This document shows, one piece after another, positions 1-54,519 of a stretch of DNA of 64,000 nt. The position numbers and the translations under genes are program-made. Origin of the DNA: Acidaminococcaceae bacterium (GTDB taxonomy: Bacteria; Bacillota; Negativicutes; Acidaminococcales; Acidaminococcaceae); assembly GCA_045598345.1 (NCBI GenBank), contig JAZLLX010000093.1, forward strand, positions 54,166-118,165, read 5' to 3'. The notes under the pieces were generated by a model. The model made no database searches. It saw only the letters and a list, made by a program, of their open reading frames with translations, and was not told the origin of the DNA. Each line of letters begins with the position of its first letter. Position 1 is the first letter of the stretch.

Positions 1-3000
1 GCATTTTCTTCACCATATAATTTGATTCTGTTAATTGAATCAGTATTGCTCAAATCAATATCACTTACGATGGAATAGGTGCTTACTGAACCAGGGTCAA
101 ACTTATCAACAACTTTAGTAGCACCAACCGTAATATTAGGATCTAATATCTTTGCTTCTGAGAATCTGATTTCATGTGCCGGATCAATATTTGTTTTATC
201 ATCAGCAACAACAGTACGGTAATCAATAGTATGATTGTCTTGAATAATTTGTGCCAATGAATAACCTTCACGTAAGGTTATCTTAATATTGCCATGACCT
301 GTTTCAGATTTGCTGAAATCATATCTGGTACTGTTACTTGTTACAGTAGATACAACATTGTTATCAAAAGTTACAGTATTCTTACTAGGATTAGATTCCT
401 GACCGGTGACACTAACCACTAATTTAGTTGCAGTATTGCCAGTTTCCAATTCACCGGTAGGTTCTGCAGTAATATTGATGGATTTTAAAGTCAGCGTGCC
501 GGAAGCACTGTCTGCTGCGTTAATATAGTCGCCCGCTGTCCCCAAATCTTTACCGTCAGAATTCCAATTTGCCAGGTTAATATCAAAGGCAATGCCGGCA
601 CCTGTTTCTGCATTGAAGTAAGTGGTATTAACCGCTTCGTTAGTGTTGTTGATTAAATCAAATACACCATTTGCGCCTACATTGATTGTAGTTGCCTGAA
701 TATTACTTGAACCAGAACCTAATTTTTGACTGCTGTTGGTGGTCAATGTACCGTTAGAAATGTTCACAGTCATTTGCGCGCCATCAAATACAGCATTTTC
801 TCCTAACTTAACATCGGCGTTAATGATCAAGGTACCTTTACTTTCATTAGCAAATCCACTGTTAAGTGTTCCCGCAGAATTAAAGTTCAAAACGCCGTTC
901 TGACCTACATTGATAGTGGCATTGATAATATTGTCAGGACTGATTGCCAGTTTGGCATTTACATCATCTGCAATATTAAGTTTGCTTTGGTCAATAACGC
1001 CTGCAGTAACCGCAACATCGCCTGTAATGGTTGTTGTACCTGCACCGCCAATATTATTAATTAACGTACCGCCAGTAAGTTTCACACCGCCACCAACAGA
1101 TTTATTAGTTACAGTTCCGCCAATATTATCGGCATTTGCCACCAAAACATTGAAGTTGGCATCTTCCACAATCATGGACTGGCTGATGAGGTCTTCTACA
1201 GTAACGGTGCCGCCATTGACAATTACTGTTCCGCTGCCGGATACTTTTTCATCAAGAGTGCCGCCTGTGAGGGTTAATTTGCTGTTATTATTGATTAAAT
1301 CGTCACTAATATTCAGGTAATCTGCATTTGTCTGAAGTTCGCCCGCATTAATGAATAATCCCTTTTGCGTAATTGCTTTAGTATTGGAATTTGTGATGGT
1401 GCCGCCATCAATATGCAGTTCGCCAGTTTTTATAGTTTCATTGTCAAGAATATTGTTTCTTAAAATATAACTGTTAGCGGTATTGATTGACAAAATACCA
1501 CGGTTAATAATATCTTCCGCAATATACAAATCATCCAAAGTGGAGGTGAACTTGGAACCATTATCTATCTGCAATTCTTTCTGGGTAATCTTAACGCCAC
1601 TGTTAATAATAGCTGTATTATCAGTTGCATTACCGGTAATATGGAGAACACCCATTGTTGCCTGACCTGCATCAGCAGAAATTTCCTTCCTAATGCTGCC
1701 GTTTCCGCTTATATACAAATCACCAAGATTTTGAACGGTAGAACCAATATTACCAATATCAATCCGTAATTCACCACTGTTATCAACTTTAATGCTATTT
1801 GCAATATGTGCCGCAGCAGTAATCTTACTGTTATCTGCTACTACAAATTTGCCGTCACCGTCAACAGTATATTCAAAAGTATCTGTACCTGTTAAGGTTA
1901 AAGTGCCGGCATTGGAAACCAAACCGCCGCCAACGGTCAAATTGTTACTATTGATAATCAATCCGCCGTTTTCAGCAATAGTCAGACGATTTTGGTTAAT
2001 GCTTGCACTATTAGTATTGGCATCAATAGTACCTGTAGTAATGGAAAGTGCACCTGTAACAGCATTATAGCCAACAATATTATTCTTAAGTTCTTTTGTC
2101 CCGTCAGCACTTAAGATTAATTTGCCTGCATTAGCGATTGCATTTGTCAGGGTGAGTTTTGCAATATCCGAAATGAAGGTTGCCTTATCCATCACAATTA
2201 ATTCTTTTTGAACAATGTTCTTGGAATCAGCCGGCATTTCGGGTACATCTTTGCCTATTTCACCATTACTGATAGTGTTTTGGGTAATTATTAAAGTGCC
2301 GGCACTGTTAAGAATGTTGTTCTTAATCGCAGTAGGCGTTTCATCTTTTGCGTTCAAATTCAATGTTCCTGCGTTATCAATATTGTCTGTAATGGTAAGA
2401 TTGCTTAATTCAGAAGTGAAGGATGCACCATTCTTCACATTCAGCTGGTACTGGTTAATGAACATATTTTGCTTGTTGATTACATTACCAATAATATTTA
2501 ATGTGCCATGTTGTGCCGCTGATGTTTCAGTATTATCCCCATTAATGTTGACTTGAATGATATCGTTTGCCAATCCCGTCTTGCCTAAATTCAACTCGCC
2601 GGTATTGACAGTAATGCCTTTAAGTGCGGAGGCAGTGGTTGTCAAAGTGCCTTCATTGTTGATTGTACCGGTAAGTTGTTGTCCGTCTGTTTGGGCAACT
2701 ACAGTTGCACCGCTGTTGATTTCTAATTCATTTTGAACATCTTTAGTCAAAATAACTGTGCCACTGTTAGCAAATTCCACAGTACCTTCACCGGTGAAGG
2801 AAGTATTGAACTCAACATTATCAGCAGAGCCGTTAAGAATTAATCTGCCTACATTAGCAATGCTGCCATTGTTAATATGTAAGTTTGCCGCACCAACGGT
2901 TAATTCACCATTGGAATTGGTAATAAACAAATTGCCTTGGGTAATACTGTTATTCGCACCAAATGTAACGGTTGCATTGTCTATGCTTAAGGAACCGCTT

Positions 3001-6000
3001 CCGGTAATATTGGCACCATTGGCAGTAAAGTCAATATTTCCTTGTTGCAAATTGAGATATCTGTCATTAGTAATTCCACTGCTGATGAGGGTATTGCCGC
3101 TGTTAACAGCAGTAATATTGACAGTTCCGTTATTGGTTACAAAGTCACCGTCAAAGCCCTTAACTTCTTTCAGTCCGGTCAAATTCAGGGTGTCGCCATT
3201 GCGGACAGCCATACCGGCAAATTGTCTGCCGGAAGCATTTTGACTGCCATTAAGAATGTAGGTGTTATCACCATCAATAGTCAAAGTACGTGCAGAACCG
3301 TCAGTTAGGTCATTAAATTCCCCAAGGTCTTCAGTAACTTCATAGTTGGATTCAAGGGTGAACTTGTTACCGCCTTTGGCGATTTCATCACCTGCGTGCT
3401 TATTATCAACAACTTTGTTTTGGATGATTTCTGCCAAACTGAAGCCATAGGTCTTTTCAATATTCAAAGCGCCGCTGCCAACTGTTGATTGTGTAAATAC
3501 ATATTTGTAAGCGCCTGTATAAATAGTTGTTCCTTCAATGGTCAGACCGGTAGTAGTTCCAGTAAGCAAATCAAGAGTAATGGTCTTGTCAACGCCACCC
3601 TTCCAACCTTGGGTTAAGTTCAGGCCGTCCAAGGAAATAGTAGTACTGTATGCTACAGAAGTTACAGCCAAATTATCAATTGCAGATGCTGTTTGAATTG
3701 CTGATGCATCGGACCAAGTGTTGCCAGACAAGTTAACATCAACTTTCAAATTGGCATTGCCGCTTAATGTACCTATGGTCAAGGTTTCGGCTGTTGCGCC
3801 CGTATTGGTCATGTCAATAACCGCATTATTGGCAGTTAAGTTGGCAACAGTAATATTATTGCCGTTGGTCTTAAGGCCGGTGCTGTCTTTCAGTGTTACA
3901 TTCTGACTTGTCATTGAACTGCCGCTGCCCATGGTGAGAGTGCCTTTGGCAATTTCAATATTGCCTGTTCCGTCAATTACTTTACGGAGTGTGCCGCCAT
4001 CAGTGAACTTGATGTTACCGGTATTGGTAACATCCGCACCAATGTTACCGGCAATAGTTTCCAGAGTGCCGGCATTGGTAATGGTACCGCCGCTCATAAT
4101 CTGACTCAGACCGTCAATAATCAGATGGGCACCTGTTTCAATATTAACATTGTTTTCAATGCCATATTGGCTTACTTTAAGTTTGGTGCCGGTGCCGGTC
4201 AGTTTTAATGTACCATCACCTTGCAAATCATGTTTGAAGTCATTATCAATACCGCTAAGTACCAAAGTACCTGCATTTTCAATAACTTCCTGAGTTATAT
4301 CCAAATAGCCGACATTTGTAGTAAGTGTTGCATTTTCTTTAATTTCTAAAGCATCTTGAGTAATTGCTTTGTTGTCGCTGTTATTTACATGACCGCCGGT
4401 AATGGTCAAAATACCGGTAGTGCCAGTAATATTTTGTTTCAATACAGTACCTGTATCTACAGCACCACTGATATTAAATTTGCCTGTATTGGTAATAGTA
4501 TCTGCGGCCAAATCCAAATCTGCCAAAGCAGTTGTTAATGCTCCGCTAATACTCAAAGTGTTTTGAGCAATTCTATTGCCTGCGTTATTGCTTACTGTAC
4601 CAATTACATTCAAAGTACCTGTCTTATCGGTAATATTCTTTGCCAAAGTACCGTCACCTAAGTTCACAGTGCCGCTGTTGGCAATACCATTAGCACCGCC
4701 AATATTATTGGCAAGGATATTCAATGTGCCTGCGTTAGTAATATTATCACTAATTGTTCCGCCAGTTGTGTTGGCTGTTAAAGTTGCTCTGTTTTCTACG
4801 GTAACTTTATTGGCAATGGCTTTGGTTACGGTAACATCAGTTGTACCATTGACATCAGCAATGATTAATTTACCGTCTTTCGTTGCAGTTTCACTTATTT
4901 CATTTTCAACTTTGCCCTTGCCTGTTAAGGTGAGAGTGCCGTCATTGGTAATTGCAGAAGCAATCTTTAAGTTGCTGACATCCGTATTCAACGCACTGTC
5001 ATCAGCAATGGTTAAATTGTTCTGTTTGATGTCTTTATCATTGGTGTTATTGATAACCGCACTGGTCAAGGACAAAGTGCCTTCGCCGTCAATGCTGTTG
5101 TTCAGTACACCGGGAACGGCTGTGCTTAACTGCAGAATGCCGGCATTGATAATCTTGGCAGTGTTGTCAATAGCCAAATCCGCCAAATCAGATTTTAAGG
5201 TTGCACCGTTCTTAACTTCCAAACCTGCCTGTTCAATATAAGCGTTATTGACTGTTGCATCTGTACCGTCAACGATTAATTTGCCGTTGCCGCTGATATT
5301 ATGAATTAATGTGCCTATACCTAAATTTACAGTACCGTCATTGGTAACAGTGTTGCCAACATTAGTTGCGGAAATGCTTAATGTACTGCCGTCCTGAACT
5401 TCCATAGTATTGGCAATGGCAGCATTGGCGGTTACATTACCATTATCCACAACAATGAACTTGCCTGTACCATTAACTGCATTATTCAAAGTACCGTCAC
5501 GGTTCAAACGGAAGGTGCCATCATTATTAATTGTATCGTTTACATTTAATTTGGTAACATCAATCTTCAAACTGCCGTCTGCAATATTCAAGGTGTTCTG
5601 AGCAATGCTGCCTGTGGAATTGAAGACCACATCAGCATTGTTGATGTTCATTGTGCCACCATTATTAACAGCAGATTTAACAGTAATGGCGCCGCTGTTA
5701 AAGTTAATGGTGCCGGCATTTTGGATTACGGAATCCAAAGTCATGCCATTTTCCAAGGAATTATCAATATTAATTGTTCCGGAGTTCGCTGCAAAGTAAG
5801 TGCCAAAGGAACTGATACTATTAATGTTTTCCAAATTCAGAACGCCATTAGTACCTACTGTAATACCTTTCTTAGTACCATCACTGGTCAGGTTAAAGCC
5901 GTTACCGTTGATAGTGAAGGTACGGGCGGTTCCGCCAGCGGTATTAGTCAAAGTACCAAGGGTATTACCTTCAAGCATAGCATCATTTTCTGCTGCACCA

Positions 6001-9000
6001 GTATTGTAATATGCATAATTAGTGAAGGTTTGAACATTGCCGGCTGCATCAACTACTTTTTCAGATACATTAGTATCTTTCAGCAAGCTATAGAGATTAA
6101 CAGTAGCCGGTTCAAATGTATCACTGGCAAAGGTGTTATTTTGGATGATTTGGGCGAGAGTATAGCCCTTGCCTTTTTGAACTTGTAATTTACCGTCATG
6201 ACCGCCACCGGTTCTATCACCAGTTTCATTATAAATTTGAGTTCCGCTGAATGTAAAGCGTGAGAAATCACTGGTAACAGTAACACTCTGACCTTCAATT
6301 TCAAAATTAGAATAATCTGTTGCACCTTTGACAAAATCTTTAACAACTTTTTCTCCATAACCGAAGGAAGCATCCACATTGGAATTGGTTACATTAACAG
6401 TCCCCAAATAGATAGTACCTTTTGCTGTACCGCCACTTACTTCAATAGTATCACTGGAGAAGGTGGAGTCAGTGGGTTTGAGATTCTTCAAACTTACATC
6501 AATGGAAACATAGGATTTGTCTGTTGTTGTTCCGCCAGTAACATCCAGTTCACCAAGTTTTATGGTGCTGAAGCCGTTATTAACCATATTCAAGGTGCTG
6601 CCCTTGCCAACAATTAATTTGCCTGCATTAACTGCATTGGAACCAACATTCAAACTTGCATTGTCGCTTAAAGTGAGGCGAACAGCAGAGTCGGATTCAA
6701 AGAGGTCAGTACTGCCAAGTTGAACGGTCTTTTCAAAGATTACATTACCTGCTTCACCTTTGATTTGCTTATTGTAAGTGCCGCCGGTAGCAAAAGTTAA
6801 TTCACTACTTGCACCATTCATGGTGATTTCACCTACAGCATCAGCCAGATCAATGGTCAAGTTACCTGCTACGTTAATCTTGTTGTTAATGGCCGCTTTG
6901 GCGATAACTTTTGCAGTTTCAGTGATAACAGTTGTGCCGTTGCCTTTAATTTCATTGGCAAGTTTATTATCATCATCATTGCCGCTCAACTTCAATGTGC
7001 CATTGGCATTGTCAACAATACCGCCGACATTCTTGGCATCAATATTCAAAGTTGCCGCATTGTTCAAAGTGATGGCTTGGGCAATTTCACTTTGAGCAGT
7101 TAATGTGCCGTTTGCCGCAACAATTACCTTACCGCCATTGCCGGTAACTTTTTCTTGTAAAATACCTTCGTCAACAAATGTCAAAGTACCTTTATTAGTT
7201 ATTTCGTTATCACCGATCTTCAAAGCATCCGCATCAATTTCCAAAGAACCGGCAGTGATGGTCATGGTCTTTTGGGCAATGGACACACCTTCAGCAGCTT
7301 TCAGATTACCGCCAGTAATGAGTAATGTACCATAAGTTGTTACAGTATCGTGTTCCATATCACTTAAAATACTGTTCTTCAAATCAGTACCTTCGATAAT
7401 GGTCAGAGTACCTTTGTTTTCAATGTCTTCGGAAATTACTAATTTAGCCAAATCTGTGGTCAGACCACCTGTGGAAGCAATCTTCAAGATATTTTGAGTG
7501 ATATTTGCTTTATTAGAAACTTCAGCAGTTACGGTTAAAGTACCTTTGGTTGCAGTTTCGCTATCTACAATGTCTTTCAACAAAGTGCCTGCACCTAAAT
7601 TCAGTTCACCTGTATTAGTTACTTTATTGCCGATATTGGTTGCTGTAATGGTTAATTTGCCTTCGTTTTCAATAGTGTTTTCAACTTTGCCCTGAACATC
7701 AATGTTGATACTGTCCGCCAACTTCAATATACCGTTAATTCCTTGTAAAGTATGTTTGAATTCCTCTGCTGTGGATTCATTATTGCCAGTTAAGGACAAA
7801 GTGCCGTCATTAGTAATGATTTGGTTGCCAATAGTCAATTCGCTTAAAGCGGATTCCAAAACAGCACTGTCTTTAATGGTCAGAATTTGTTGGATAATGC
7901 CTTCGGTGTTGCTGAAAGTGCCTTCGCTTAATTCCAAAGTGCCGGCAGCAGTGCCGTTATTAGTAATTGTATAATCCAATACATTGGTTCCTGTAGTATC
8001 TTTGCCATTAAGTTTAACTGTACCCTTGTTAATCAAACTGGTGTCCAATTCAAGTTTTCCAACATTGGTATCTAATTCGCCTCCGGCATTGACAAGCAGT
8101 TGTTTCTGTTGAACATCCTTGTTTCCTGTATTCAAAATTGTGCCGGTTGCTACAGTAAGAACACCAGAACGAGAACCTTTATCAGCAGAATCAACAATAC
8201 CATTGGGCAGTACCACAGAACCGCTTGCGGAAATAATCAGATTGCCTTTGTTTTCAATATCTTCTGTAATTGCCAAAGGCGCAATATCAGTGGTGAATGT
8301 ACCGCCGGAAAGAATTTCCAATTTATTCTGCTTGATAAGATTTGCACTGTTGGTAACATTGCCGGAGATTGTTAAAGCACCTTCATTTTGTGCAAAAGAT
8401 AAGTATTCAGTAATTTCTTCGGAATCAAGTTTATCTGTAATGTCCTGTGTAAGAACACCTTCGGTCAATTCTAATTTGCCGAAACTGAAAATCTCACCTT
8501 TAAGATTGTCGACATCTGCAACAACACTGCCGGTATTGAAGAGTGTTTCAGTGATAAGAGCGTTTGCATCTGTAGCATCTAAATTGGCTTTTTGTTCACC
8601 AAATGCCGCTACCAGCACATCAGTATTGACTACATTTTGCAAGGTGAGTTTTGCATCTCCTGTTACATAGGTAAGACCGGTGCCAGTTATACCATCAGTA
8701 ATTACTTGTTCATCTGATTCTGTGCCGTAGAATCCCAGTATGCCGTTATTGGTAATGATTGAACCAACAGTAAGTTTTCCTGCATCAACTTTTACTGTAC
8801 CGTTAATTGATAAATTCTTTTGGGTTAAGGACATACCGCTGTCCATAGCGAGAACTGCTCCTGAAGCAACATTTAAGTTGCCTGTAGCAGTGGTGGCATC
8901 AGAAATATCTGCCTGCATTGCAACAGTGCCATTCTCAATGAAGAGGTTGCCCTTATTGACAATTTCACTGCCAATAGTTGTGGTACCACCGGTAGTGATA

Positions 9001-12000
9001 TTGAGCACGCCGCTGTTGGTAACAGCCGCTCCGTTGAAGCCATTGATTTCTGTCAAGCCCTTCAAAGTTAAGGTGTCAGATGTACGGACAGTAACACCTG
9101 CTTTATCATTACCCAAAAGTTTATAACTGTTTTGACCGTCAATAGTCAAATAACGATTAGATTTCGGTAAAACATTTTTATAATTTTCAAATGTTCCAAG
9201 TCCTGTAGAGTCATCTTCTGCTTTTTGACCATCAGCACCAACTACGTAATCCTCTTCCAAAATATATTGGTTACTGCTCTTCGTAGTAATAGTATCACCA
9301 GCATAAAGTGAATCTTTATAATCATCATCTTCATTAACATCAATATTCTGAATTACCTGACCCAAGCTAAAGCCACGCTCTTTGGTAACTTTAACCTGAC
9401 CTGTTGTACCCTCTTGTTCAAAGACATATTTACTGGTGCTCAGATATACTTCTGTGCCATTGATTGTTACCCCAGTAATGTTATCCCCCTGTAACAAATC
9501 AATATAGACAAAGCTGTTCAAAGAGCCGTTCCAACCTTTTACAAGGTTGACATTATTGTCAAGGTCTAATACGGGAGCATTTCCCGTATCAATGCCGGCG
9601 AGTTTAATACTGCTGTATTGGGCAGTTATGTCATTTGTCACATCTACTGCACCATCTGCTGTACCAGTAAAGTTAACATCAATTGCCAAATTACCTTTAC
9701 CTGATAATGTGCCAACAGTAATGCTCTTATATGTAGGTTCTGCAGAAGTCAAATCAAGAGTGCTTACTTCCGTTCCTTCAGTGTATAACCGCAAATCACC
9801 AATGGTCTTTTCGTTGCCGCCTGTAGCCAAGGTTGCACCCTTAGCGACTTCAATATCTTGATATTGCAAATCGGCATTTTTGCCTAAAGTGAATTTCTTA
9901 CCTGCTGCAATCTTAACAGTACCATGATCGTCTGCTGTTGCACTAATTGCTTTGTTCCAAGTGCCGTCAGCGGTAAATTCTACTGTACCCGTATTTTCAA
10001 ATTCACCGGCAATATTGCCTACAATTGCCTGTAAATTACCTTTGTTAATAACTTTACCGCTAATAATCTTACCGGATGCAGTATCAATTACTTTTGCCCC
10101 TTCAGCAATTTCAATTGTATTGGCAATAGTATTGCCAATTGTCAAACTATTGCTGTCAGTACTTTCAACCACTAATTTACCAGTACCGCTAAGTTTGTCG
10201 GACAAAGTGGCTGCAGCAGTAGTAAAGAGTGTTAAAGTACCGTCATTGCTGATTTCATCACTACCAACAGTTAAGTTGGTAATATTAGTTCTTAACTCTG
10301 CACCGCTTTGAATTTGTAAATCCTTTTGAATAATTTGTTTAGCAGAAGAAGTGCCATTGTCAATCTTGCCGCCGGAAACAATCAATTTACCTGTGCTACC
10401 ATCAATTGCATAGCCCAAAGTAACACCGCCCGTAGTATTGACTTGCAATTCCAAAGTACCGTTATTTGTCAAAGCGTTAGATAAAGTGAGTTTTTCAATA
10501 TTGGTTTTCAGTGAAGCATTTTGTTTAACTTCCAATTGTTTTTGGGTAATCGCTTTGCCGGAATCACCAATATTGGTAATTGTACCGCTGTTAATGATTA
10601 ATTTGCCTGTCTTGGTTGTCTGACTATCTGTAATAGCATTTTGCAATGCGAATGTATTGGCCGTATCCAGTGACAAAGTACCTTTATTTTCAATAGCGTC
10701 AGTAATCGCCAGTTTATTGATGTATGTATCAAATTCCGCACCTGCGGCAATGGTCAAATCCTTTTGAGTAATGGTATTGGTGTTCTTCAAAATAACTTTG
10801 CCGGAGGAAATTGTCAAATGACCTTCTGCAGCATTAATATCTGTATCTGCTTCAATATCATATTCCAAAGTGGAACCGGTGTCAGTTCCTGACAAGTTCA
10901 TAACATTGAGATTGGTCACTTCATTGCCAATATTGGCAACGCCAATTTCCAAAGTGCCTTTATTGAGAACAGTATTATTGAGTTTTGCATCTGTTGCAGT
11001 AACATTCAATTTAGCAGTATCATTTACTATTACATTATTGTCAACAAAATTATTAGCCGCTAATTTAACATTGGCATAAGCATCCATTTCAAATGTACCT
11101 GTACCAGTAATAGTATGGGCAAATTCTGTAGCAGTTGCGGACATGGATGTTCCGCCAGTTAATACTAAAGTACCTGCATTGGCAATCTCTGTATCTTTCA
11201 AGGTCAATTTATCCGCCTGCACAGTAAGTTTGCCGGCAATGTCAGTAATAGTTAAGGTTTTTTGTGTAAGAGCATTGCCGTTCATCTCAACTTCGGCTGC
11301 TCTGATCTTCATGGTGCCTTGTTCACTGACATTAGTAATATCAGCATTCATAACAACTTTACCGTTTGTAACAGTCAATGTGCCGCTGTTGCTGATGCCG
11401 CTGCCAAAGGTTGTACCGTCAGTCCTGCCGGCAATTACTAACTCGCCACCATTATTGACAGTAACCGCATTGCCGCTAAATCCGCTTACTTCTGCCAAAT
11501 TCTTCAAAGTCAATTTGTCTTTATCACGAACAGTAATACCTAATTTGTTATTACTTGTCAAACTGTATGCACCGGCACCGTCAATAGTGAAATGACGGGC
11601 ATTGGTAGGACTGAGTGTATTATCTGTTGTTGTATCATTAAGTTTATTAAATTCACCCAAGTCATCAGCAGTTACATAATCCTGGTCCAGAACGAACTGG
11701 CGGTTGCCGCTGTTAATGTTTTCCTGACCTGCATATTTAACTTCTGTACCAACATCTACACCGGCATTTTGAATAATTTGTGCCAAAGTGAAGCCGTTTT
11801 CCTTAGTAACACGAACCACACCGGAATTGCCGACTTGTTCAAAAATGTATTTGTATTGGGAATCATAGATGGTAATGCCTTGAATACTGAGGCCGGTAAT
11901 TGGGTTGGAAGCATCAACTAAAGTAAGGTCAACAGATTTGTGTACTCCCTGTTGCCAACCGCTAATCAGATTAACCTTATCCAATGTCAAAGTAGTATCG

Positions 12001-39000: not shown

Positions 39001-42000
39001 TCATCCTCCATAAGGATGCTGCCGCCGGCAACAATACTGCCGTCAGCAGTAACATTTTTGGCATCAATGATTACATCCTCACCCGCCTTAACTGTTTTGC
39101 CCGTCTGAATGGTCAGGCCGTCCGCTATATTGAGGACTACATCACCATTTATAGTAGTGCCAGATACGTTGTTCACATCTGCGTTCACTTTCAAGGTCTT
39201 GGCAGTGATGGCAATGCCGGCGCCGTCAGTTGTTAATGCAGTGCCTGTGGCATTAACTGCATCATTCAAAGTAATTACGCCGGTATCACCGCCGTCAATG
39301 GTAATGTAATTCTTGGCAGTAATTGCCTGTAAATCCGCCTGGGCAGTTACACCGCTCAGGATAACACTGCCGCTTGCAGAATTGATTGCACTTGCCGGTT
39401 TATTGGCTTTAACAGTTGCACCGGTAATGGAGATATCGCCTGTACCCTCATTGGTTACAGTGCTGTCAAAGGTAAAGGTGTTTGCATAAACATCAATGCC
39501 ATCGGTTGCGCTCATGGCGCCGGCAAATTTTGCACTGGTAACCGGTTTTGCTGAAGTGCCTACACTGAGAGTGCCGCCGGTGGCTGCAACAGTACTGTTG
39601 GCAGTTACAGTGCCGCCATTAATAACAACATCTTTGCCGCTGACTGCTCCTGTCATTGTCAAAGAAGTGCCGCCCGTCAAGGTGGCAGTTGCCGTATTGG
39701 CAGTTACTGCACCCAGTAACTGAACTTCGCCGTCACCTTCCACGGTAACTGTGCCGGCAGTAAGGTCCGCATTGGCGGTAATGTTATTGCCAAGCAAACT
39801 GATTATGTCTTTTGCGGTCAAGTTATTAAAGGTGGCAGTACCCGCCGCTTCACCCTTGTCAATTAAGTAGATACTGCCTTGTTCTGCTTTAATATCGCCT
39901 GTTGCAACAACAGTAGCGGAGTCCATATAAACATTGCCTTTTGTTGCTTCTACCGTAACTCCACCGGCAATAGCCAGTTTCTCGCTGGTGGTGAGAAGGA
40001 TATTGCCGTCAGTAGCGGTGGTATCGGCATTGACATTGATGGTCCTGCCTGCAATATCAATGGCTTTATCGGTAACTGCGCCTGTGCCTGTGCCTGACAA
40101 TTTATTTGTACCGGTGGCATTAACTTCGTCATTCAAAGTAATGGTACCGGTGGTGCCGCCGTCAACAGTGATGTAATTGAAGGCGGTAATTTTATCTAAG
40201 TTTGCTTCGGCAGTTACACCACTTAAAATTACGCTGCCGGAGCCGGATTTGATTTCATCTTTAGCCGTAATCTGGGCAGAGTCCACCTTAATATCGTTGG
40301 CAGAACCTGCACCTGTGCTTGTGGAAACAGTGGAATCAAAGGTAACAGAGCCGGCATAAACATCAATACCTTGGGCTGCGCTTAAAGCCCCTGTGAAACT
40401 GCCGGAAGTGATTTTGTCTGTTGTACTTTGACCTACGGTAATCTTGCCGTTTTGGGCAGTAATATCCCCTTGGGCGGTAACATTGCCGCCGTTAATAGCA
40501 ACATTGGTTGCACCAACTACCGCACCGCCGATACTGAGGGTTGTGCCGCCTGTCAGGGTAACTGCACCAACGGTGGAGGTAACAGCAACTTTTTTGCCAT
40601 CAGTCGCTTCGGCAGGAACCGCCCCTTTCAAGTCCACGATGCCACGACCATTTACGGTAACTGTGCCGGCAGTAAGGGCCGCATTGGCAGTAATGTTATT
40701 GCCAAGCAAACTGATTTCTTTATCTGCATTCAAGTTGTTAAAGGTGGCAGTATCGGCGTTATCTTTATTCAGTAACTTAATACTGCCTGTGGTGGCGTTA
40801 ATGTCGCCCGAAGCGCTTACGGATGCGGAATCCATAATTACATCGCCTTGGGAGGAAGTAACGCTCTTGCCGCTGCCAATGGTCAGTACACCGGCGGTGG
40901 TGAACTTCACATCACCCTTGCCGGCAGTAATATCTGCCTGAACATTGATATTGTTGCCTTTTACTTCCACGCCATTGCCGTTTGCAGAACCATCAACTGC
41001 TTTGGCAGTTCCATCTTCTGATGTTGTAACAGTACCTGACAAAGTGATATTGCCTGTGTCGCCGCCCTGAATATCAATATAATTCTTGGCGCTGACTGCC
41101 TGCAAGTCCGCAGAATCGGTTACGCCGTTGATAATTACTTTGCCCATGCCGGAAGTGATGGCGCCCCCAGCCACTAATTTTTGAGTATTTAACGTAATAT
41201 CGTTATCAGCAACACCGCTATTTCCACTATCTTGAGTGGTAACGCTGGAGCCAAAGGTAAGATTGGTTGCATCAATAGTAATCTTATCCGTTGCACTTAA
41301 AGCGCCCTGCAAAGTTGCGGTGCCGACAGTGCTGTCCTGACCAATCTTAATTTCACCATCAGTGGCAGTAATGGTGGCAGTTGTGGCAGTTGCTCTAACG
41401 GTAGCGCCGTCCAAGGTTACGGCAGTGCCGCTTACCGCACCGTCCATAGTAAGGGTGGCGTCTGATTTCATGGTGACAGAGCCGTTACCTTCGCTGTTTG
41501 CCGCTATAGTACCGGTTACAGTCCCCTTGGTCCAAACATCGCCGGTACCGATAATATTGATAGTATTAGTTAATAAATTATTGTTGGCAGTGATTGCCTT
41601 GCCCTGCAAATCAATTTTGTTCAATGCCTGTAATTCGTTAAAGGTGGCACTGACCGCATTAGCGTTTTCAACAAGGGTAATGCTGCCATTTGTTGCCGTA
41701 ATCTTGGTGTCGGCAGCCATTTCCACGGTAGCCGCATCAAGGGTAACATCCTTATCTGCAGTAATATTGCCTTTAATATCCACTTTGCCTGTTTGGGCAG
41801 TCAAAGAGGCACTGCCTGCTGTGGCAGTTACGGAAGCGCCGTTACCGATATTGATATCCTTGCCGGTAATGGTTACGGCGTCAGCAGTGCCGGCAACATC
41901 AGTACCGTCGGCGGTCAAAGTGCCGGACAGGGTGACAACACCTGTTCCCGAATTGAGGGCGATTGTCTTGCCTGCAGCAATATTCTTCAAAAGAATGTCC

Positions 42001-45000
42001 CCGGTAGTGGTGGTCATGGCAATATCCCCGCCGGAAGCGGTTACATTGCCCAGACCTTCGCCCGCCGTATTGGCCGTAACGGATTGGGCGTTAATAGTGA
42101 TATTACCTGCATTAGCAACCGCATTGGTAGCAAAGGTCAGGCCGCCTGTAGCAGTTACAGCAATTCCATTGGCGGCAGTAACATCTTTGTTAAAGTTCAC
42201 TGTTCCTGCATTCGTTGTGGAATTGCCGACAGTAATTGCCCCTGTGGTGGATGTGACTGTGCCTTTGGCAGTAATATCCGCACCGTTCAGGGCCACGGAA
42301 GTGCCGCTGATGTTGCCGTTGACAATCAGTTTGGTCCCGCCGTTCAAGGTTACGGAACCGTAACCTTCACTGTCGGTTGAAGTGGCGCCGGTAACCGCCT
42401 GGAGAATTACTTCACCGGAACCGTCAACAACTACAGTATTGGTACTGAAATCTTTACCTACTGTAATATTATTACCTTTTAAGTTGATTTCGTCTTTTGC
42501 ATATAATTGTTCAAAAGTTGCTTTATTAAAGGTTGTATTTGTATTATTGAGGATGATGCTGCCGTTGGTGGCGGTAATGGTGCCGGTGGCAGTAACATCC
42601 TTAGCATTCATTATTACATCGTCATTGGCAGTTACGCTGCCGGGCAGGGTCAGGGTGCCGGTGGCAGTGAGTTTTACATCGGCGCCTGCGCCTGTATTGG
42701 CAGTAATAGTTGCATTATTGCCGGATGCCGTAATATTGTTGGCGCTGAGGGTAACCCCGTTTGTACCGCCCGAAGTAATGGCATTGTCAAATTTAATTTC
42801 TTTGCCGGTTGCACTCATGCTAATATCCCCGCCGGCAGTAACAATGTGCAGGGACGCATCCCCCGTGCCGGTCATGGTAATATTACCGGTCTTGGCCCAA
42901 ATTTGCGCTCCGGTTGCGGTCAATTTTTCGTTTTCCAAAGCAATATCGCCTGTGGTGGCAGTCACATTACCGTCAAAGGAAATTTCACCGTTGCTTAACA
43001 TAGTAATGCCATTAGCGGCAGTAACAGTGTTATTGAAACTTGCAGATGTAACATATTTGTCAGTCCCACCGACCAAAATTGCACCTTCGGTGGAGGTTAC
43101 GCTCTGCTCTGCATTAATTTCTCCGCCCAACAATGTGACAACGCTGCCCTCAACAGTTCCCTTGGTTCTTAAGGAAGTGTCGCCTTCCAGGGTGACAGTA
43201 GTTGCGCCTGTAATATTGCCCTTTGCCAATACTTCACCGCTGCCGTTGACATTGATTGTGGTTGCGTCAACCGTCTTGTTCAGGGTGATTTTATTGCCCT
43301 GCAAATTAATATTGGCCGCTTTCAGTTCGTCAAATTCCGCACTGACTGCGCCTTCGGGTTTGGTTAAGGTAATATCCCCTTCTGCCTCAATCTTGGCACT
43401 TGCCTGTACGGTCTTGGCATTCAAATGCACATCTTTGGCGGAGGTGACAGCACCTTTCAAAGTAATGCTGTCCGTTGCAGTCAAATCAATGTCCCCTGCA
43501 GTGGTGGTAAGGGTGCTGACTGTAGTTCCCGCATTGATGGTCTTGGCGCTTACGGTAATACCTGCCAAGTTAGTGGAACCAACCGCCTCTACTGTATTGC
43601 TGAAAGTTACTTCCCCGTTAGTGTCTGTTACCTTAAATGTGGTACCGGCATATACAACATTGAATTTTGCTGTGCCGTTGGCAGTGATGTCAATAGCGCC
43701 TGCATTGGCAGTCAAATTATTTTGCGCTTCAAAAGTGCCGTTATCTCTTACCACAATATCTCCGGTGGTGGCGGTTGTGGCTCCGCCAAAGGTCAGGGAT
43801 TCTGCAATATCAGCAGTAATGCCCGTACCTGCAGTAACAATGCCGGTCAGGGAAACCTTGCCCGCCTCATCTCCAGAAGCGCCAATGGTCAAGGTACTTG
43901 CCGCATTTACTAATTTATTATTAGTTACATTAACAATATCACCGTTGAAGAAGATGGTGCCGCCGGAAACATCGTTCTGCATTTCCAGTTTGGTGTCGCC
44001 CACCATGTGAACACTGGTAGCACCGTTGATTGTACCTATTACTGTAACGGTGCCGGTGCCGTCAGTATTGATTACATTGGCGCCCATATTGCCGTTGACA
44101 GTAATATCCTTACCGTCCAAATCAATAGTGCCGTTGGTGGCGGTCAAGTCCTTAAATTGGGCGGAAACAGCGGTGGTCTTCTGGTCCAAACTGATGGTAC
44201 CGCCGCTGACAACGCTTAAACTTGCTGTTGCGGCTTCAACTGTATCCGCATTTACGATAATATCCCCATTGGTTGCAGTGGCGGTATTATTGGTTAAAGT
44301 CAATGTATTGGTGTCAAATTTAATATTACCGTTAGCAACATTAATATTGCTGCCGGAGGTAATGCTGCCCGCAGTAATTTCCATTGCGGTCTTGCCATCC
44401 GAGAGTAAAGTACTGCCTGCCACATTTACAACATCGCCCAAGGTAACGGTCTTGCCGGCGGCAGTAACCTGCATGGATTTGTTGACAGCCAACTCATCCA
44501 AAGCAACATCGCCGGTGGCAGTTACAAAGAGGTTGCCGGCTTTTGCCCAAACCTTTTCAGATGTAGTAAGGGTGCCGGTTTCTAATGTAATATCTCCTGT
44601 ATTAACAGTAACTTCTTTACTGAATGTTAAAGAGGTATCTGCATAAGCATTAAGGGTATCTGCAACAGTAACTGCTCTACTGAAAGTAACAGTTCCTGCA
44701 TGAGTTCCGCCATCGCTGCCATCGCCAATATTCAAAGCGCCTGTTGTGGTTTCAACTTCGCCTTTGGCAAGGACGGTGCCGCCGTTAAAGAAGATTGTGC
44801 CGCCGGAAACATCATTCTGCATTTCCAGTTTGGTGTCGCCCACCATGTGAACACTGGTAGCACCGTTGATTGTGCCTTTTACGGTAACAGTGCCGGTGCC
44901 GTCAGTATTGATTACATCGGCAGACATACCGCCGTTGACAGTAATGTCCTTGCCGTCCAAATCAATGGTGCCATTGGTGGCGGTCAAGTCCTTAAACTTG

Positions 45001-48000
45001 GCGGAAACAGCGGTGGTCTTCGGGTCCAAACTGATGGTGCCGCCGCTGACAACGCTTAAACTTGCTGTTGCGGCTTCAACTGTATCTGCTTTTACGATAA
45101 TATCCCCATTGGTTGCAGTGGCGGTATTATTGGTTAAAGTCAATGTATTGGTGTCAAATTTAATATTACCATTAGCAACATTGATATTGCTGCCGGAGGT
45201 AATGCTGCCCGCAGTAATTTCCATTGCGGTCTTGCCATCCGAGAGTAAAGTACTGCCTGCCACATTTACAACATCGCCCAAAGTAACGGTCTTGCCGGTG
45301 GCAGTAACCTGCATGGATTTGTTGATATTCAACTCATCCAGAGCAACATTGCCGGTGGCAGTTACAAAGAGGTTGCCGGCTTCTGCTGTAATTGTGTTTT
45401 TAGCAGTCAAAGCCACTGTATTCAGGGTAATATCCCCTGCAGTAGCAGTAACTGTCTTATCAAAAGTCAGGGAAGTGCCAATATAGGCATTGATGGCATT
45501 AGCTGCAATAACATCACCGTTAAAGGTTACAGTGCCGGCTTTGCCTGTGGAAGTGCCTATATTCAGAGCCCCTGCTGTGGTTGTAACATTACCTTTGGCA
45601 AGGACGGTGCCGCCGTTAAAGGATGCCGTGCCGCCTGTAACATTGCCCTGCATTTCCAGTTTGGTGGTGCCGTTCATATCAACACTGGTAGTGCCGTTGA
45701 TAGCACCCACTACAAGAACATTGCCGGTGCCGTTGGTATCAATTACATCGGCAGACATACCGCCGTTGACAGTAATATCCTTGCCGTCCAAATCAATAGT
45801 GCCGCCATTTGCGGTCAGTCCCCTGAAGGTTGCGGACACAGCAGTCCCCTTCGGGTCCAAACTGATGGTCTTGCCGGCAGTTTCCAATACCAAATCAGTA
45901 CTTGCCGCATTGACCGTATTTGCGGTCATGGTAATATTGCCATTGGTGGCAGTAACTGATTTATTGCTGCCCAAGGTCAGGGTGTTGGTAATAAAGTTTA
46001 TATCACCCTTGGTTGTGGAAACATCGCCGCTGGCAGTAATGGTTCCGGCAGCAACATAAATACCATAATCACCACTGGCTACCGCACCGCCGCCGGTCAG
46101 GAAAGTGCCGTCAGCATGAATATTGTTGTTAAAGGTAATATCCTTGCCATCGGCAGTGGTCATATTGATGTTGTCATAAGCGTTGACGGTATTGAACTTG
46201 GCGTTGCCCGTGCCGTTCAGTACCACACTGCCCTTGCCTGCAGTAATGGCGGCAGCGGTGGCGGTCAAGTCGCCCACATTAAACACAATATCGTTGTGGG
46301 CAACACTTGTGGAAGAAGTTGCTGTACCGGTTGAAACTGTAGCGCCGCCCAAGGTAAGGGAGGTGGTGGCATTGATTTCAATGCCGTCCGTTGCGGACAT
46401 GGTGCCTGAGAATGAAGCGGTATTAGTGGCAGGGGTGCTTAAGCCCGCAGTAATTTTGCCTCCTGTGGCAGTCATATTGGAACCGGCATTGCCCGTAATG
46501 CTCTTGCCTGTCAAATCAATGGATTTGCCGGTCACGGTGCCGCCGGAGAGGGTAACGCTGTTCTCGCCTTTGATGGCGATTGCACCGGTTGCGTTTATTT
46601 GATTGAATGTTACATCCGTTGTACCATCGGCTGTAACAGTGTTTGCCTGGGTTGCCCCGTTAACCGTAATGGCCTTGCCCTGCAAATTAATTGCCTGTTC
46701 GGCGGTCAGAGCGCTGAAGGTTGCGGAAACAGGGGTAATGCCATCTTTTGACAGAGTAATATTTGTTTTTGCATTGATATTGCCGGAATTGACGGTGGGG
46801 GCTTTCAGGGTTACGGAATCGTTAGAACTTGTAATTCCACCGCCAGTGGTAATGCTGGTGGTGCCGTCAATGGTAATGGCGTCAGCAGCACTTATCAAGC
46901 CCGTAACATTCACAATGCCTGCATCAATGTCAATGCCTGTGGCTGCTGTAATGGTGCTCCTGCCGGTCAAAGTGCCGGTAACATCCATATCAATGTTTGC
47001 CGCAACATCAACTTTCGCCCCAAATTCCGCATTGCCGCTGGCATTCAGGGTCAATGCCCCTTCAGTTGTAGTGAAAGTTGCAGTAGTGCCGGAAGCGGTA
47101 TAATTGCCCACATACATGGTTGCAGAAGCCGCATTAACTATTCCGGTTGTAAGAGATGCCACCTTGCTGGAAGTGCTTGAACCCACGGTTAAAGCATTTG
47201 CAGCAGTCAAATTCTTGGTGGTTACAGAGCCGGAACCGCCCTGCAAAGTAATGCTTTTTGCACTGATGTTATTGGTATTGCCGGTGCCGGCAACTTTGAG
47301 ATCTGCCGCACCTGTAAGGGTGAAAGCATTGCTAATGGTCAGATTGCCCGTAGCATTGGCAGTCAAGTCCTTGGTTTCAGTGATGTTGCCGCTGACGGTA
47401 ATATCCTTGGCGGACATATCTATCTTATTGGTGGCAGTCATATTGGCAAAAGTAACTGCACCGCCAGCATCAGTAACCTTAATATCATTGCCTGCGGTCA
47501 CTTTGCCCGTAGCGAGGACAGTATTGCCTGCCACAGTCATTATTATGTCATTAACGCCTTCAGCAGTCAGTCCGCCTGTGCCGATGTTCACACTGCCGCC
47601 AGTTGTGGAGTTAATACTGATATTGCCGGCAGTGGACTTAACAAGGCCCGTGCCGGTGGTAAAGGACTTGGAATCAACAGTAATGGCCTTGGCAGTCGCC
47701 GTGCTTTGCAAGCTGATTGCATTGCCGGCACCCTTCAAAGTGATATTGCCGCTGGTGGCAGACATAGCGCCTTTGAAGGTGGCGCTGGTGGCATTAGGAA
47801 CGGTAGCAGCGTCATTCAGAGTAATATTGCCCGTTTTGGCGGTGAGGGTGCTTTCCGCAGTGACAACCTTGCCGGTCATGTCAATTTGGGAGGAGGAAAC
47901 GGAATTCAGTTTCAGTTCATCCGCACCTTTCAGAATTGCTTCCCCCGTGGTGGTCAGACCCTTGACAAGGGTGACTTTGGTTCCGTTAAAATTAACTGAT

Positions 48001-51000
48001 TTGGCCCCAATGATCTCATTAAAGCTTACTTGGGCACCATTGAATGTAATTTGATTGGTTGAAGACAATTCCCCGATTTGAGACACTTTGGATGCAACGG
48101 TAGTGGTTAACTTAATATCCCCTGCGGTAGCGGTCAGTTTTTTGTTGGCAGTAATAACGCCTGCATTGATAGTGTAATCATTGGCCGTGCCCGTACCTGC
48201 AATGATAAGGGCGGTGGCGGCGGTCAGGGTTGCCGAACCTTTGGCATCAATAGCAGTTCCCGTGGAACTGAAATTCATGGTGTCACTGTTAAGAACCAAC
48301 GCACCGTTTGTGGTTTTTACAGTACCTTTGTAAGTGGCAGTACTGCCGGAAGTGCCAGATTTTTCCTCGGCTGTAATCTGTTTGGCAGTCAGATTGCCTT
48401 CAAAAGTGATGCTCTTGGCTGTAAGGGTCAGAGCGTTGGCAACAGTTACACTGTCCGCAGAACTGCTGCCCGCCTTAAAGGTTTCCGCAGAGACCTTCAT
48501 GAAGTCCGTAACATTAAGTGCCTTTGCCAAAGAGAACTGCGTGTTCAAAGTGGCATCAATGGATTTGACCCCGGCACCCTTCATGCCGGTCAGAACTTTC
48601 TTGAATGTAATGTTATCAGCAGTTGTAACTTTTAATTCACCAATATTAGCATCTTCGTCAAAAGTAATATTGGAAGCACTAACGACATTTAATTTATTGG
48701 CTATTGCCTTGCCCTTAAATTCCAACGCCCCGTTAGAACTGCCGGCTTTGCCGATATTGACGGTGGAACTTTCGGACTCAATGGCATTTTTGCCTGTAAG
48801 TCCCATATAATGAACGCCGTAAATGTTCAAAACCGAAGTGCTGCCCACGCTGACTATATTGCTGCTGACGGTGTTCACATTTTGCAGATTGATAGTGCCG
48901 GAATTGGACACAATAAGGGTGTCGTTGGCAAAACCCTTAATTGTACCCAGGTCCTCAAAGGTAAGGGTGTCACCCGCACGGACCGTGCCTGCCCCCGCAT
49001 CAACCGTGCCTGCCAGCACATTGCTGCCCGTACCTTTAATTGTCAGGGTACGGGTGCTGCCTTCGCCGGAAGTGATTTCTGCAGTATCACTCGCATTACG
49101 CTTGTGGCCCAAGGTCCCCAAACCGCCATAGTCATTATTGACCGTGTAAGTGCCGGCGGAAATATCATAGGTGTTATATTTGCCCTCCCTGTGATTATCC
49201 TTAAGACCATAGTAAGTGTCCAGGTAACCGCCGTTCACCAGAAGGCCGTTGTCAATGGTGGCCTTAACATTCTGGAAGGCCTCCGTCAGGGTGGACACAC
49301 CGGTCATATTGATTAAAATCCTGCCCTTGTCCGTCAAATCCTGACGCAGGAACACATGGCTTTCCTTGTCCTCGCCCAACAGATAGACAAAATCACTATT
49401 TTCGTAGCGTTTAGCAATATCTTTTTTTGCATCAGAAGCAGCTGCTTCAACTATCTTTATATTGTTCTTGTAGCTGAGATCCCCTTCAAACAAATCAAAA
49501 TAGGTGTGCCGTGAGATTGCTCCCGCCATATCAATATCCAATACGAAAGTACCGGAAGCCGCCCCCGTAAGTTTGATTCTGTCGTTTTTAACATTATTTT
49601 TTGTCGTGGAAGAGAAATCAATATCAAACTGGAGTTTCACATAATCACTGTCCCCGGAAGGAACCCACAGGCCTTTTACTGCAACCGTGTTGTAGGCATC
49701 ATTCTGCATGTCAATGACACCACTTTTGAGCATTGAGATTTTCGCCGCCGTACCCAAATTAGACGCAGTGCCCAACACCAAAGTTCCGACGGAATTCATA
49801 TTGACCGTAGCGCCCGTTCCTGTAAAGGAGTTAATCGTCATTGTGCCGGAATAACCTACGGTATTGGTTCCGCCCATAGCGCCGATGGAAATCAGAGCAT
49901 GGTGATTTACGCTCTGATAACCCGCTTTGTTAAAATTGGCAATGGTAACTGTTGCATAGGCACTGGCTGTCTGCTGTCCGGAGAAAGTGCCGACTGAAAC
50001 ATTTGCCTTAGATCCTACCGTCTGGACAGCATTAACCTGAAGATTGGAAACAAAAGCGGACGCACTGTTGTTAACAATTTGCGTTGCCCCTGCAAGCATG
50101 GCCCCCACAGAACCCGTCTGGCCGGCACTTATGCTCTGCGTTGCCAAAGTTCCCATCGTATCCACATGGCCGGTGCCGGCCGCAATCATCTGGTAAGCGG
50201 AAGACATTGTACCCACGCTGGCGTAACCGTTTCCGCTGATATATTGGTTGGCGCCCTGCATCAGGTCAACAGTACCTTTTGCCCCGTTGCCGGAAAAGGT
50301 CTGGTATGCCTTTGCAGTGCCGTTGTTCATAAGCGTGCCTATGGAAACATTTGCAGTGCCCCCGGAAACAACCTGGGTTCCGCCGGTCATGGTCCCGATG
50401 CTGACAGCCACATTATTGCCGCTCACCTTCTGAGTCATGCCCGTAGCCCCAACAACGGTAACTGCAGCGTTGTTGCCCACAATCTCTTGAATACCGTTCT
50501 CAATATTGGTAACAGTAAGTTTTGCCGCAGAACCGATGACCTGCGTTCCTTGGAGCACCAAATCCACAATAGCATTGCTCGGGCCTTTCGTTGCGGCTGC
50601 GCCCAGTATCTGCACTGCCAAACTGGACATAGTGCCGACACTGATATACGCAGACGCTGCGCTTTGAGTACCTTTGACAAATGTGCCTATAAAACCGGAA
50701 CCTGCATTGGCAACAGATTGAATACCACCGTTAGTAAGGATACCGATAATGCCGCTTGCCCCCGCTGCCACCAGTTGGGTCGCCAAGGCATTAATCGTAC
50801 CGATGGAACCGTACCCTGCGGACATAATATTTTGTGTTCCCGCAATACTCAAAGTTCCAATGTACCCTGCACCTCCCTTGGATACAACCATATTGGCAGA
50901 AAGCATTGTGCCTACGGAAGCGGTGCCGCCGGAATCCACCCGCACCACATTCGTATCGTACTTGTTGGCAGTGTTATATCCGTTTGCATCCCAGTAATGC

Positions 51001-53573: not shown

Positions 53574-54158
53574 TCACTCTTCCCCCTTTCCGAATCTTTC
53601 CAGCAGAATCTCTTTGAACCTGTCTGCAGGAACTATGAATTCCGTCCTGCCCCTGACCACCCTGGCAATCAGGTAACCCTTGTTGTATTCCCAGTTTAGT
53701 TTGCTGGTCTGGAGCACACCGTTCTGTATATATTTTTTTATCCGTTCCTGATTTGTAAAAATCCTTTCGTTGCTCACCAGGGAGGCCAGCGCCGGCTTGT
53801 CAACCAGCGGTGTATAAACGCTGTAGCGGTTCTGGCTGAAGTATTCCTCCAGGGCCTCCATCATCCGCTTGTCCTCACCGTAAAGCACCTTGAGGTACTC
53901 CCACATAATCATGCCGAACTGTTCCTCATTCCCCCGGTCAACATTGAACACGAAGAAAGCCAGTTTGGTGGCAAAATTCATAATCTGGAACGACCTCACC
54001 CCACGGAAGTCAAAGCCCTTGATGCCCCACGCCGTGAGAGGGTCCCATTTTTTTATTTTGAGCAACTGCATGGCAGGCACCCTGTCGCCCTCCGGCAGTT
54101 TGTCCGCCATGGTAATTGCAAATTTGTCCGCTAACCCTTGTGTAATGTGAAAAATCAT
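53574..54158 (-). CDS. Hypothetical protein (194 aa from ATG 54158; the track's 203-aa version starts at GTG 54185), first gene of the giant-protein operon
   Basis: The ORF is open with non-repetitive, normal composition (MIFHITQGLADKFAITMADKLPEGDRV...). Its stop is 1 nt before the BAHT ATG. GTG 54185 would lie ~12 nt from the predicted transcription start with no SD, so ATG 54158 is preferred (weak AAAGAG upstream). I cannot place the family with confidence. Confidence 0.6.
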   Translation of the reverse strand: MIFHITQGLADKFAITMADKLPEGDRVPAMQLLKIKKWDPLTAWGIKGFDFRGVRSFQIMNFATKLAFFVFNVDRGNEEQFGMIMWEYLKVLYGEDKRMMEALEEYFSQNRYSVYTPLVDKPALASLVSNERIFTNQERIKKYIQNGVLQTSKLNWEYNKGYLIARVVRGRTEFIVPADRFKEILLERFGKGEE

Positions 54159-54204
54159 TTGTCCGACTCTTTTCTGGGCACGCACGCCCGCAAAATATAT
54201 TTAT

Positions 54205-54495: not shown

Positions 54496-54519
54496 TTTTT
54501 TGCAACCGGAGGATGAACA

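Follow-up and report, generated by a model that had tools for sequence, protein, structure and literature searches.

The stretch of DNA analysed herein (the window; 64,000 nucleotides (nt), positions 54,166 to 118,165 of contig JAZLLX010000093.1, assembly GCA_045598345.1) comes from an Acidaminococcaceae bacterium and carries, on its minus strand, one gene for a giant protein in which a domain resembling the autochaperone end of autotransporter passengers recurs internally, between beta-helical runs. A six-frame scan of the window revealed a single stop-free frame of 17,327 codons, running from 51983 to 3, and no other frame with at least 600 open codons. The first ATG of this open reading frame (ORF), at 51965, lies behind a ribosome-binding site, GGGAGG, and immediately adjoins the stop codon of the gene upstream, which encodes an enzyme like the autotransporter heptosyltransferases TibC and Aah. 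Because the frame leaves the window at coordinate 3, on the left edge, the giant ORF (3..51965, minus strand) specifies at least 17,321 amino acids (aa), the gene is longer than 52 kb and the C-terminus lies beyond the window; residue i starts at window position 51965 - 3(i - 1). Searched whole against Pfam and NCBIfam at normal thresholds, the giant gave zero matches in any part.

The recurrent element, hereafter the junction, is a non-rung domain of 155-178 aa. A preliminary description, made from the letters of the sequence, had reported nine copies, each marked by a motif A, (F/I/V)D(I/V)(D/N)(F/L/M)(S/T), and a motif B, G(F/Y/W)(S/T)L(A/G)(Q/E)(I/V/M)I(Q/R)(N/D). That count holds: a profile hidden Markov model (HMM) built from the eight segments with motif B and run over the whole giant retrieved exactly eight strong copies (independent E 1e-44 to 1e-54, with scores elsewhere near or below zero) and one weak, partial N-proximal match at aa 733-852 (E 4e-6). 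All are encoded on the minus strand, and we cut the giant after motif B to define cassettes C0-C8. Copy 1 (49266..49769, aa 733-900; HMM E 3.8e-6) has FDIDFS as its motif A and reads VSTLTEAFQN at the site of motif B; it is divergent, yet alignable with the eight others. Copies 2 (32877..33410, aa 6186-6363; E 1.9e-44) and 3 (17559..18050, aa 11306-11469; E 2.8e-52) terminate C1 and C2. These are followed by copies 4 (14451..14927, aa 12347-12505; E 5.9e-50), 5 (11754..12248, aa 13240-13404; E 3.6e-50), 6 (9333..9824, aa 14048-14211; E 1.9e-50), 7 (6126..6647, aa 15107-15280; E 8.7e-45), 8 (3405..3869, aa 16033-16187; E 1.6e-54; the copy used for modelling) and 9 (225..716, aa 17084-17247; E 2.9e-44), which terminate C3, C4, C5, C6, C7 and C8, respectively.

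Aligned together, the nine segments form a conserved domain of about 165 columns with a mean column identity of 36%, and chance does not account for its motifs, for which shuffled sequences lead one to expect 0.09 matches (motif A) or none (motif B and the restart pattern GSxRTLTI[DK]G). The patterns themselves need some revision. As first written, motif A is too strict, fitting five of the nine copies while the other four read FDIAFS, IDVAFG, IDVSLK and FDINLA, and motif B fits all copies except the N-proximal one. Start to start, the two motifs lie 297-363 nt apart, not 314-374 nt, and a variable loop of 10-30 aa, differing between copies, follows motif A in each. Past motif B, a linker with a conserved Y-x-L...L-G-x-L motif, shared with distant homologues, leads to the strand with which the next beta-helix restarts. 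The proposed restart, G-S-x-R-T-L-T-I-(D/K)-G, has two literal matches and the rest require a looser form, R-x-[LFM]-[TV]-I-x-G, which occurs exactly eight times in the 17,321 aa, each time 52-106 aa past motif B. One occurrence, RTLTIDG at 3270..3290, is the first strand of the next beta-helix in the model described below (E305-318); the seven others lie at 49032-49052, 32580-32600, 17367-17387, 14268-14288, 11577-11597, 9135-9155 and 5904-5924, likewise on the minus strand. Since the last 78 residues past copy 9 (window 3-224; STYSIVSD...NRIKLYGEEN) are a variant of linker plus restart, a tenth cassette begins at the window edge. The giant is thus made of at least ten beta-helix segments, and the nine completed in the window each close with a diverged autochaperone-like copy.

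Our comparisons largely support the view that the junction is remotely related, at sub-threshold level, to the Pertactin/autochaperone end of passengers, and not a plain rung. At relaxed thresholds, Pertactin (PF03212) matched two of the nine giant copies (best E 0.0032) and, once copies from relatives were added to make 19, six (best E 1.7e-5), and it was the only family to match more than one copy; AC_1 (PF18883), like every other family, was matched by one copy among the 19. Further, an HMM of the giant's copies alone matched two conventional Phascolarctobacterium autotransporters at the very place of their Pertactin domain, specifically at aa 553-621 of the protein at locus L002 (Pfam Pertactin 555-652, E 1.3e-10) and aa 296-383 of that at locus L037 (Pfam Pertactin 291-386, E 2.8e-6). 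In hhalign, the partners of a 22-sequence junction profile were eight Pertactin-type domains from conventional Negativicutes autotransporters; Pfam confirms three of these domains, two of them above its threshold. Profile and domains aligned over 113 columns with a probability of 88.3% (E 2.9e-6) and in a sensible register, in which F-D-V-D-L-S...D-x-I pairs with F-x-x-N-T-D-L...S-D-x-I, whereas seven controls, taken from rung regions of the giant or of conventional autotransporters, reached at most 1.8%.

The predicted fold points the same way. In an AlphaFold2 model of aa 15923-16447 (copy 8 with flanks; mean predicted local distance difference test score (pLDDT) 83.6), beta-helix rungs are accompanied by other elements: model residues 116-129 and 139-152 pair as a long hairpin, motif B forms a short helix (S-L-A-E-I-I, residues 255-260), and there are further strands. 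The segment from motif B to the restart (262-300) has a pLDDT of 50-58, and a new helix begins from R-T-L-T-I (305); residues 164-167, in the loop past motif A, fall below 50. In view of the modelled hairpin, helix and low-confidence linker, we rejected ordinary continuous rungs, the outcome that had been named as damaging to the idea of a distinct domain. In a Foldseek search of the PDB, the best match of the full model was the C-terminal passenger fragment of IcsA (5KE1; probability 1.0). For a model cropped to the upstream rungs and the junction (pLDDT 83.8, predicted template modelling score 0.82), the top 14 matches were classical autotransporter passengers only, pertactin (1DAB) first, with IcsA (5KE1), Ag43, EspP, SepA, EspC, Hap, IgA1 protease and Hbp, separated by a gap from the next matches, at E > 1; 13 of the 14 had probabilities of 0.84-1.0 and a second EspC chain had 0.44. 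Parallel rungs on either side of the junction in the model, with passengers as the best fold matches, identify the surrounding sequence as beta-helical passenger. With the Pfam matches, the cross-matches to Pertactin domains and the hhalign result, the fold makes up four independent lines that support the resemblance to an autochaperone suggested for an element here internal and iterated.

Several results weigh against this assignment. No giant copy reached the PF03212 gathering threshold of 22 bits (one scored 14 bits), such that the Pfam comparison proposed earlier yielded Pertactin as the sole recurrent family, with all of the giant's copies below threshold. With the giant's nine copies alone, the hhalign probability was 11% (E 0.0028), and junction profiles run against PDB sequences returned no autotransporter, only chance matches (Rtt106, PilE, L24). 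An HMM of three Pertactin domains, run on the giant, did not retrieve the junctions, and pairwise BLAST of copy 1 against the L002 Pertactin region was not significant. The Foldseek matches are borderline, with E about 1e-3 to 0.07, TM-scores of 0.3-0.47 and no aligned ranges. Crystal structures of Ag43 lack the autochaperone (PMC5767081), and since Ag43 was matched too, and no aligned ranges accompany the matches, the fold similarity could involve generic autotransporter rungs. As to the protein as a whole, its leader, in the place where classical autotransporters carry a Sec signal peptide, is only weakly hydrophobic (maximum 15-residue Kyte-Doolittle mean of about 1.1) and its own C-terminus, hence any barrel, is beyond the window.

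The cassettes measure 898 aa (C0), 5,461 aa (C1), 5,106 aa (C2) and 807-1,069 aa (each of the six from C3 to C8), in line with the very different run lengths stated earlier. This inequality is explained by tandem super-repeats of about 266-280 aa in C1 (aa 899-6359) and C2 (aa 6360-11465), which together span 17571..49271 on the minus strand: autocorrelation of the protein has its peaks at 280 aa (C1) and 266-273 aa (C2), and the DNA repeat families of these long cassettes have a period of 750-870 nt and identities of 60-93%. In the C1 array, three 300-nt units lie at 43942-45912 with a spacing of 831-840 nt and identities of 93% and 70%; they are the most recent duplication in the gene, and copy number could vary, or the assembly be uncertain, at this site. 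An assembly artefact was rejected as the source of the giant: no identity above 93% over 300 nt was seen among its DNA repeats, and with cassettes only about 30% identical it is unlikely that repeats led to a wrong assembly of the architecture as a whole. How many super-repeats C1 and C2 have could be less certain than that architecture.

The idea that the gene grew by concatenation of cassettes is supported in two respects: C3-C8 are homologous and mutually alignable over their full length, at 26-34% identity, with C3, C6 and C8 forming one subtype and C4 and C7 another, and the N-terminal module is colinear with whole ordinary passengers. A phylogeny, put forward earlier as a check for serial duplication, gave no clean signal. 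In a neighbour-joining tree with bootstrap over 21 junction copies from the giant and other proteins, one intragenic clade emerged, at 73% bootstrap, which joins the four copies starting at aa 11306, 13240, 14048 and 16033 (the ends of C2, C4, C5 and C7), while the remaining copies were as close to those of other proteins as to one another (18-34% identity). The junction duplication is old, and both intragenic duplication and recombination with other family members are possible routes.

The TibC/Aah-like autotransporter heptosyltransferase (51962..53572, minus strand; 536 aa) matches TibC_1st (PF21129, 1.4e-13) and Glyco_transf_9 (6.6e-12) and has relatives of 50-60% identity in Acidaminococcales, Phascolarctobacterium, Succiniclasticum, Anaerovibrio and Selenomonadales, a distribution that places the source among the Negativicutes, which are diderm Firmicutes. 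At four related loci (L002, L008, L018 and L037), the TibC-like gene is followed by an ordinary autotransporter of 730-1,270 aa with AIDA repeats and/or a Pertactin domain and a C-terminal PF03797 beta-barrel, and at a fifth (L036) by a 1,377-aa protein with a sub-threshold AIDA match only. The leader of the giant (aa 1-105; 51651..51965, minus strand) shows weak colinearity with the leaders at such loci: in three of four comparisons with barrel-bearing autotransporters, local alignments stood above shuffled sequence (z = 4.2, 2.9 and 5.0), and the features in common include ...LN.VN... and MV..KAEAA. An AIDA/TibA-like region of 19-aa rungs (about aa 338-731; 49773..50954, minus strand) is 30-34% identical to the repeat regions at L002, L018 and L036, and 19 aa is the strongest autocorrelation offset in C0. 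Rung-region identity and leader colinearity together indicate that C0 corresponds to a complete conventional passenger, and the giant continues where its ordinary relatives have a linker and barrel. Further, the giant has both features expected of a substrate of the BAHT heptosyltransferases, an adjacent TibC/Aah-type enzyme and a 19-aa-repeat region that resembles an acceptor; by analogy with TibC and TibA, the 19-aa rungs are probably heptosylated by that enzyme.

Between the leader and the 19-aa repeats lies a segment of about 230 aa (aa 110-337; 50955-51638, minus strand) with a high content of Tyr, Thr, Trp, Ser and Gly (as in YYSSSVWIRKVWWTTFTG and AYAYDTRYAYQYQEVGTNYYTAYGYN); it has no Pfam match and no counterpart in the conventional autotransporters of the related loci. 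More distant TibC-like enzymes, of 45-52% identity, were seen in Burkholderia sp. L27 (L023 and L024) and in Lachnospiraceae metagenome-assembled genomes (MAGs; L030-L033), and, since the bins labelled Lachnospiraceae, Blautia or Roseburia represent monoderm lineages, binning contamination or horizontal transfer is probable. Upstream of the TibC-like gene, a glycan-biosynthesis cluster (53574-64000) encodes two DegT-type aminotransferases, two GT2 glycosyltransferases, a radical-SAM protein, a weak staphylopine-dehydrogenase-like ORF and, on the plus strand at 54520-56207, two GT8 glycosyltransferases. An ORF that overlaps the GT8 genes (54457-55314, minus strand) has no match and is probably spurious. 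Opposite the giant, dozens of antisense ORFs of 150-540 aa line the plus strand from 2758 to 51368 (e.g., 42382-44010 and 50079-51368); these most likely reflect stop-poor frames opposite repetitive coding sequence rich in Gly, Thr, Asn and Ala rather than genes.

The junction is not confined to the giant. Exhaustive HMMER with the nine-copy profile against 1.84 billion representative proteins matched 13 proteins (clusters) at E <= 1e-3, among them autotransporters of Acidaminococcaceae and Synergistaceae in which the junction is internal and present once or twice. The best match (P0001; MDY6029219.1, E 1.7e-27), a 2,691-aa protein annotated as an autotransporter in an Acidaminococcaceae MAG, carries the junction twice, internally, at 1334-1474 and 1843-1983, and ends in a PF03797 barrel (2431-2670); P0007 (1,870 aa, E 1.1e-8) also has two internal copies, with a PF03797 barrel at 1615-1850, and in both proteins 450-1,100 aa separate the copies from the barrel downstream. 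Most of the fuller-length matches (P0001, P0003, P0006, P0007 and P0008), one of which (P0003) is a Synergistaceae MAG protein, keep a composite module in fixed order: the autochaperone-like domain, a G-[YF]-x-L-x-Q-[IV]-[IV]-Q-N helix, a Y-S-L...L-G-T-L linker and the restart R-x-L-T-[IV]-N-G-N. Others are partial, P0002 having the helix motif only and P0009 and P0010 the restart only. P0010 (942 aa, from an ENA metagenome) shows by eye, after its junction module and restart, a YadA-type trimeric anchor with a coiled-coil tail, which would mean, if this reading of the anchor holds, that the junction module occurs on type Vc adhesins too. When one junction with flanking sequence served as the query, a word-indexed homologue search had found nothing, a negative that reflects the limited sensitivity of that search, given the 13 proteins later retrieved by HMMER; pattern scans for the junction in GTDB genomes and JGI metagenomes found no relative. 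The module is thus rare and conserved, and atypical diderms use it as an internal building block of their autotransporters; the giant is its extreme case.

Among known systems, one close parallel is the autochaperone itself, the domain with which beta-helical passengers end on their C-terminal side and which measures about 110 aa (Rojas-Lopez et al. 2018, PMC5767081). Like Pertactin/autochaperone domains (PF03212 and AC_1, PF18883), the giant's domain sits at the C-terminal end of a beta-helical run, is of comparable size (its envelope is 155-178 aa, of which about 113 columns align) and shows the same order of signatures, L-x-F-D-x-x-L...D-x-I-x-V...T-L-x-L...N...Y-x-Y-x-F. In contrast to the classical domain, which is single and directly precedes an alpha-helical linker and barrel, that of the giant is internal, occurs at least nine times, with all nine copies in the window preceding more passenger sequence, and has downstream of it a conserved helix (GFSLAQIIQN), then a linker motif and the restart of a beta-helix. 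P0001 and P0007 have the same module, with a helix G-Y-T-L-Q-x-V-[IV]-x-[ND] and then R-x-L-[TS]-[IV]-N-G-N; they differ in having two copies against at least nine and in being complete with a PF03797 barrel, whereas the C-terminus of the giant lies outside the window.

The growth of autotransporters by replication of passenger segments is already known from BigE, a 10,429-aa, BrkA-related beta-proteobacterial autotransporter with an eight-fold repeat of a passenger segment and internal beta-strand repeats (Celik et al. 2012, PMC3419190). By its description, BigE attained giant size on the same principle, although it belongs to a different phylum and passenger family, and its repeat of about 310 aa, of 'unknown function', is not described as autochaperone-like (PMC3419190). 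Further, the Acidaminococcaceae giant is at least 1.7 times longer, has very unequal cassettes and has a TibC-like glycosyltransferase as partner. In this last respect it recalls TibA and AIDA-I, which with TibC and Aah form a BAHT heptosyltransferase system (Lu et al. 2014, PMC4358343): a glycosyltransferase gene with TibC_1st and GT9 domains is followed by an autotransporter, and the N-terminal 19-aa rungs of the giant are related to the AIDA-type repeats of neighbouring-type autotransporters. Unlike TibA and AIDA-I, the giant is unmatched throughout by the Pfam AIDA model, its AIDA-like part amounts to about 2% of the protein, and its glycosylation is suggested by gene adjacency alone.

We consider it probable that the giant is a classical (type Va-like) autotransporter passenger built of serial beta-helix cassettes with autochaperone-like ends. 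Its first 900 residues would represent a complete AIDA/TibA-type passenger, with leader, 19-aa rungs and autochaperone-like end, from which the protein would run on into at least nine further beta-helix cassettes instead of a linker and barrel. Each complete cassette would comprise a restart strand (R-x-L-T-I-x-G), a beta-helix of variable length, an autochaperone-like domain of about 160 aa, the helix G-F-S-L-A-Q-I-I-Q-N and a linker of 50-100 aa, modelled at low confidence, with Y-x-L...L-G-x-L; C1 and C2 would owe their size of about 5,000 aa to expansion by super-repeats, each about 270 aa long, in tandem. The C-terminal end of a passenger emerges and folds before its N-terminal end, and the autochaperone comes out first and templates the folding of the helix. 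By that logic, each autochaperone-like module would emerge before its own helix and nucleate the folding of that helix, and the modules would act as serial folding nuclei, with the restart strand capping the helix at its N-terminal end and the linker uncoupling neighbouring units. In this manner, a passenger of more than 17,000 aa might be folded and pulled out segment by segment, yielding an articulated fibre of rigid rods and less ordered linkers, possibly up to micrometre length.

Other explanations of the junctions share part of this evidence. If cassettes arose as duplicated and fused passenger-plus-autochaperone units, the junctions could be evolutionary scars that serve as structural filler and play no specific part in folding or secretion, with selection acting on the adhesive rods. 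We think this unlikely, even though the cassettes are whole-length paralogues, the junction copies have diverged to 18-48% identity, motif B has been lost in the N-proximal copy, and BigE attests that an eight-fold replicated passenger segment is tolerated. The nine copies keep their length, their motifs and their order of helix, linker motif and restart despite cassette identities of about 30%, and the composite module is conserved across proteins of two phyla, both of which argue for purifying selection on the module itself.

Weaker still, to our minds, is the case for the linker past motif B as a flexible joint or as a cleavage site at which several adhesin fragments are released. The segment from motif B to the restart is variable in length (52-106 aa) and has a pLDDT of 50-58, and PmpD and VacA are passengers known to be processed into multiple pieces (PMC3419190 mentions this). 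However, its Y-x-L...L-G-x-L motif is shared with distant homologues, so that the linker is probably not simply disordered, and Pfam and NCBIfam scans of the giant revealed no protease domain or known cleavage motif; hinges or processing would, besides, be compatible with the serial-cassette passenger favoured above and not exclusive of it. We regard as highly improbable that the junctions are ligand-binding or self-association knobs, spaced along the fibre, and not folding elements. The variable loop of 10-30 aa past motif A could present diverse surfaces, and the relatives of the N-terminal module are self-associating AIDA-type adhesins, but the junctions show no similarity to any known binding domain and find their best matches in the structural C-terminal end of passengers. 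Two other assignments of the protein were tried and rejected: a two-partner-secretion (TPS) or filamentous haemagglutinin type, for which there was one Fil_haemagg match at E 0.56 and no TPS domain, and a phage tailspike-like beta-helix, for which the viral fold library gave zero matches.

A broader proposal can be entertained, albeit tentatively and as one that may well prove wrong: the modules could be a modular answer to the length problem of type V secretion, in which independent folding nuclei let more than 17,000 aa be ratcheted through one barrel, and the composite module could be a domain family not described so far, particular to atypical diderms (Negativicutes and Synergistota), by which passengers can grow without a fixed limit. 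What is new here is the recognition of a repeated boundary element as autochaperone-like and of a composite module common to a small family in Negativicutes and Synergistota, together with the pairing with a TibC-like enzyme and a length of more than 17,321 aa. The giant, at more than 17,000 aa, is the longest autotransporter-type protein that we found on record, extending the size range from the 10,429 aa of BigE, reported in 2012. Annotation pipelines would leave its 52-kb gene without any annotation, and the rare composite module adds an element that current domain libraries (Pfam and NCBIfam) do not recognise. The locus also extends the pairing of TibC-type glycosyltransferase and adhesin to gut Negativicutes. 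In the prevailing model of secretion, one C-terminal autochaperone folds first and serves as the template from which the beta-helix folds vectorially; nine or more such elements in one natural protein would offer a ready-made test of local nucleation and of the practical limit to helix length.

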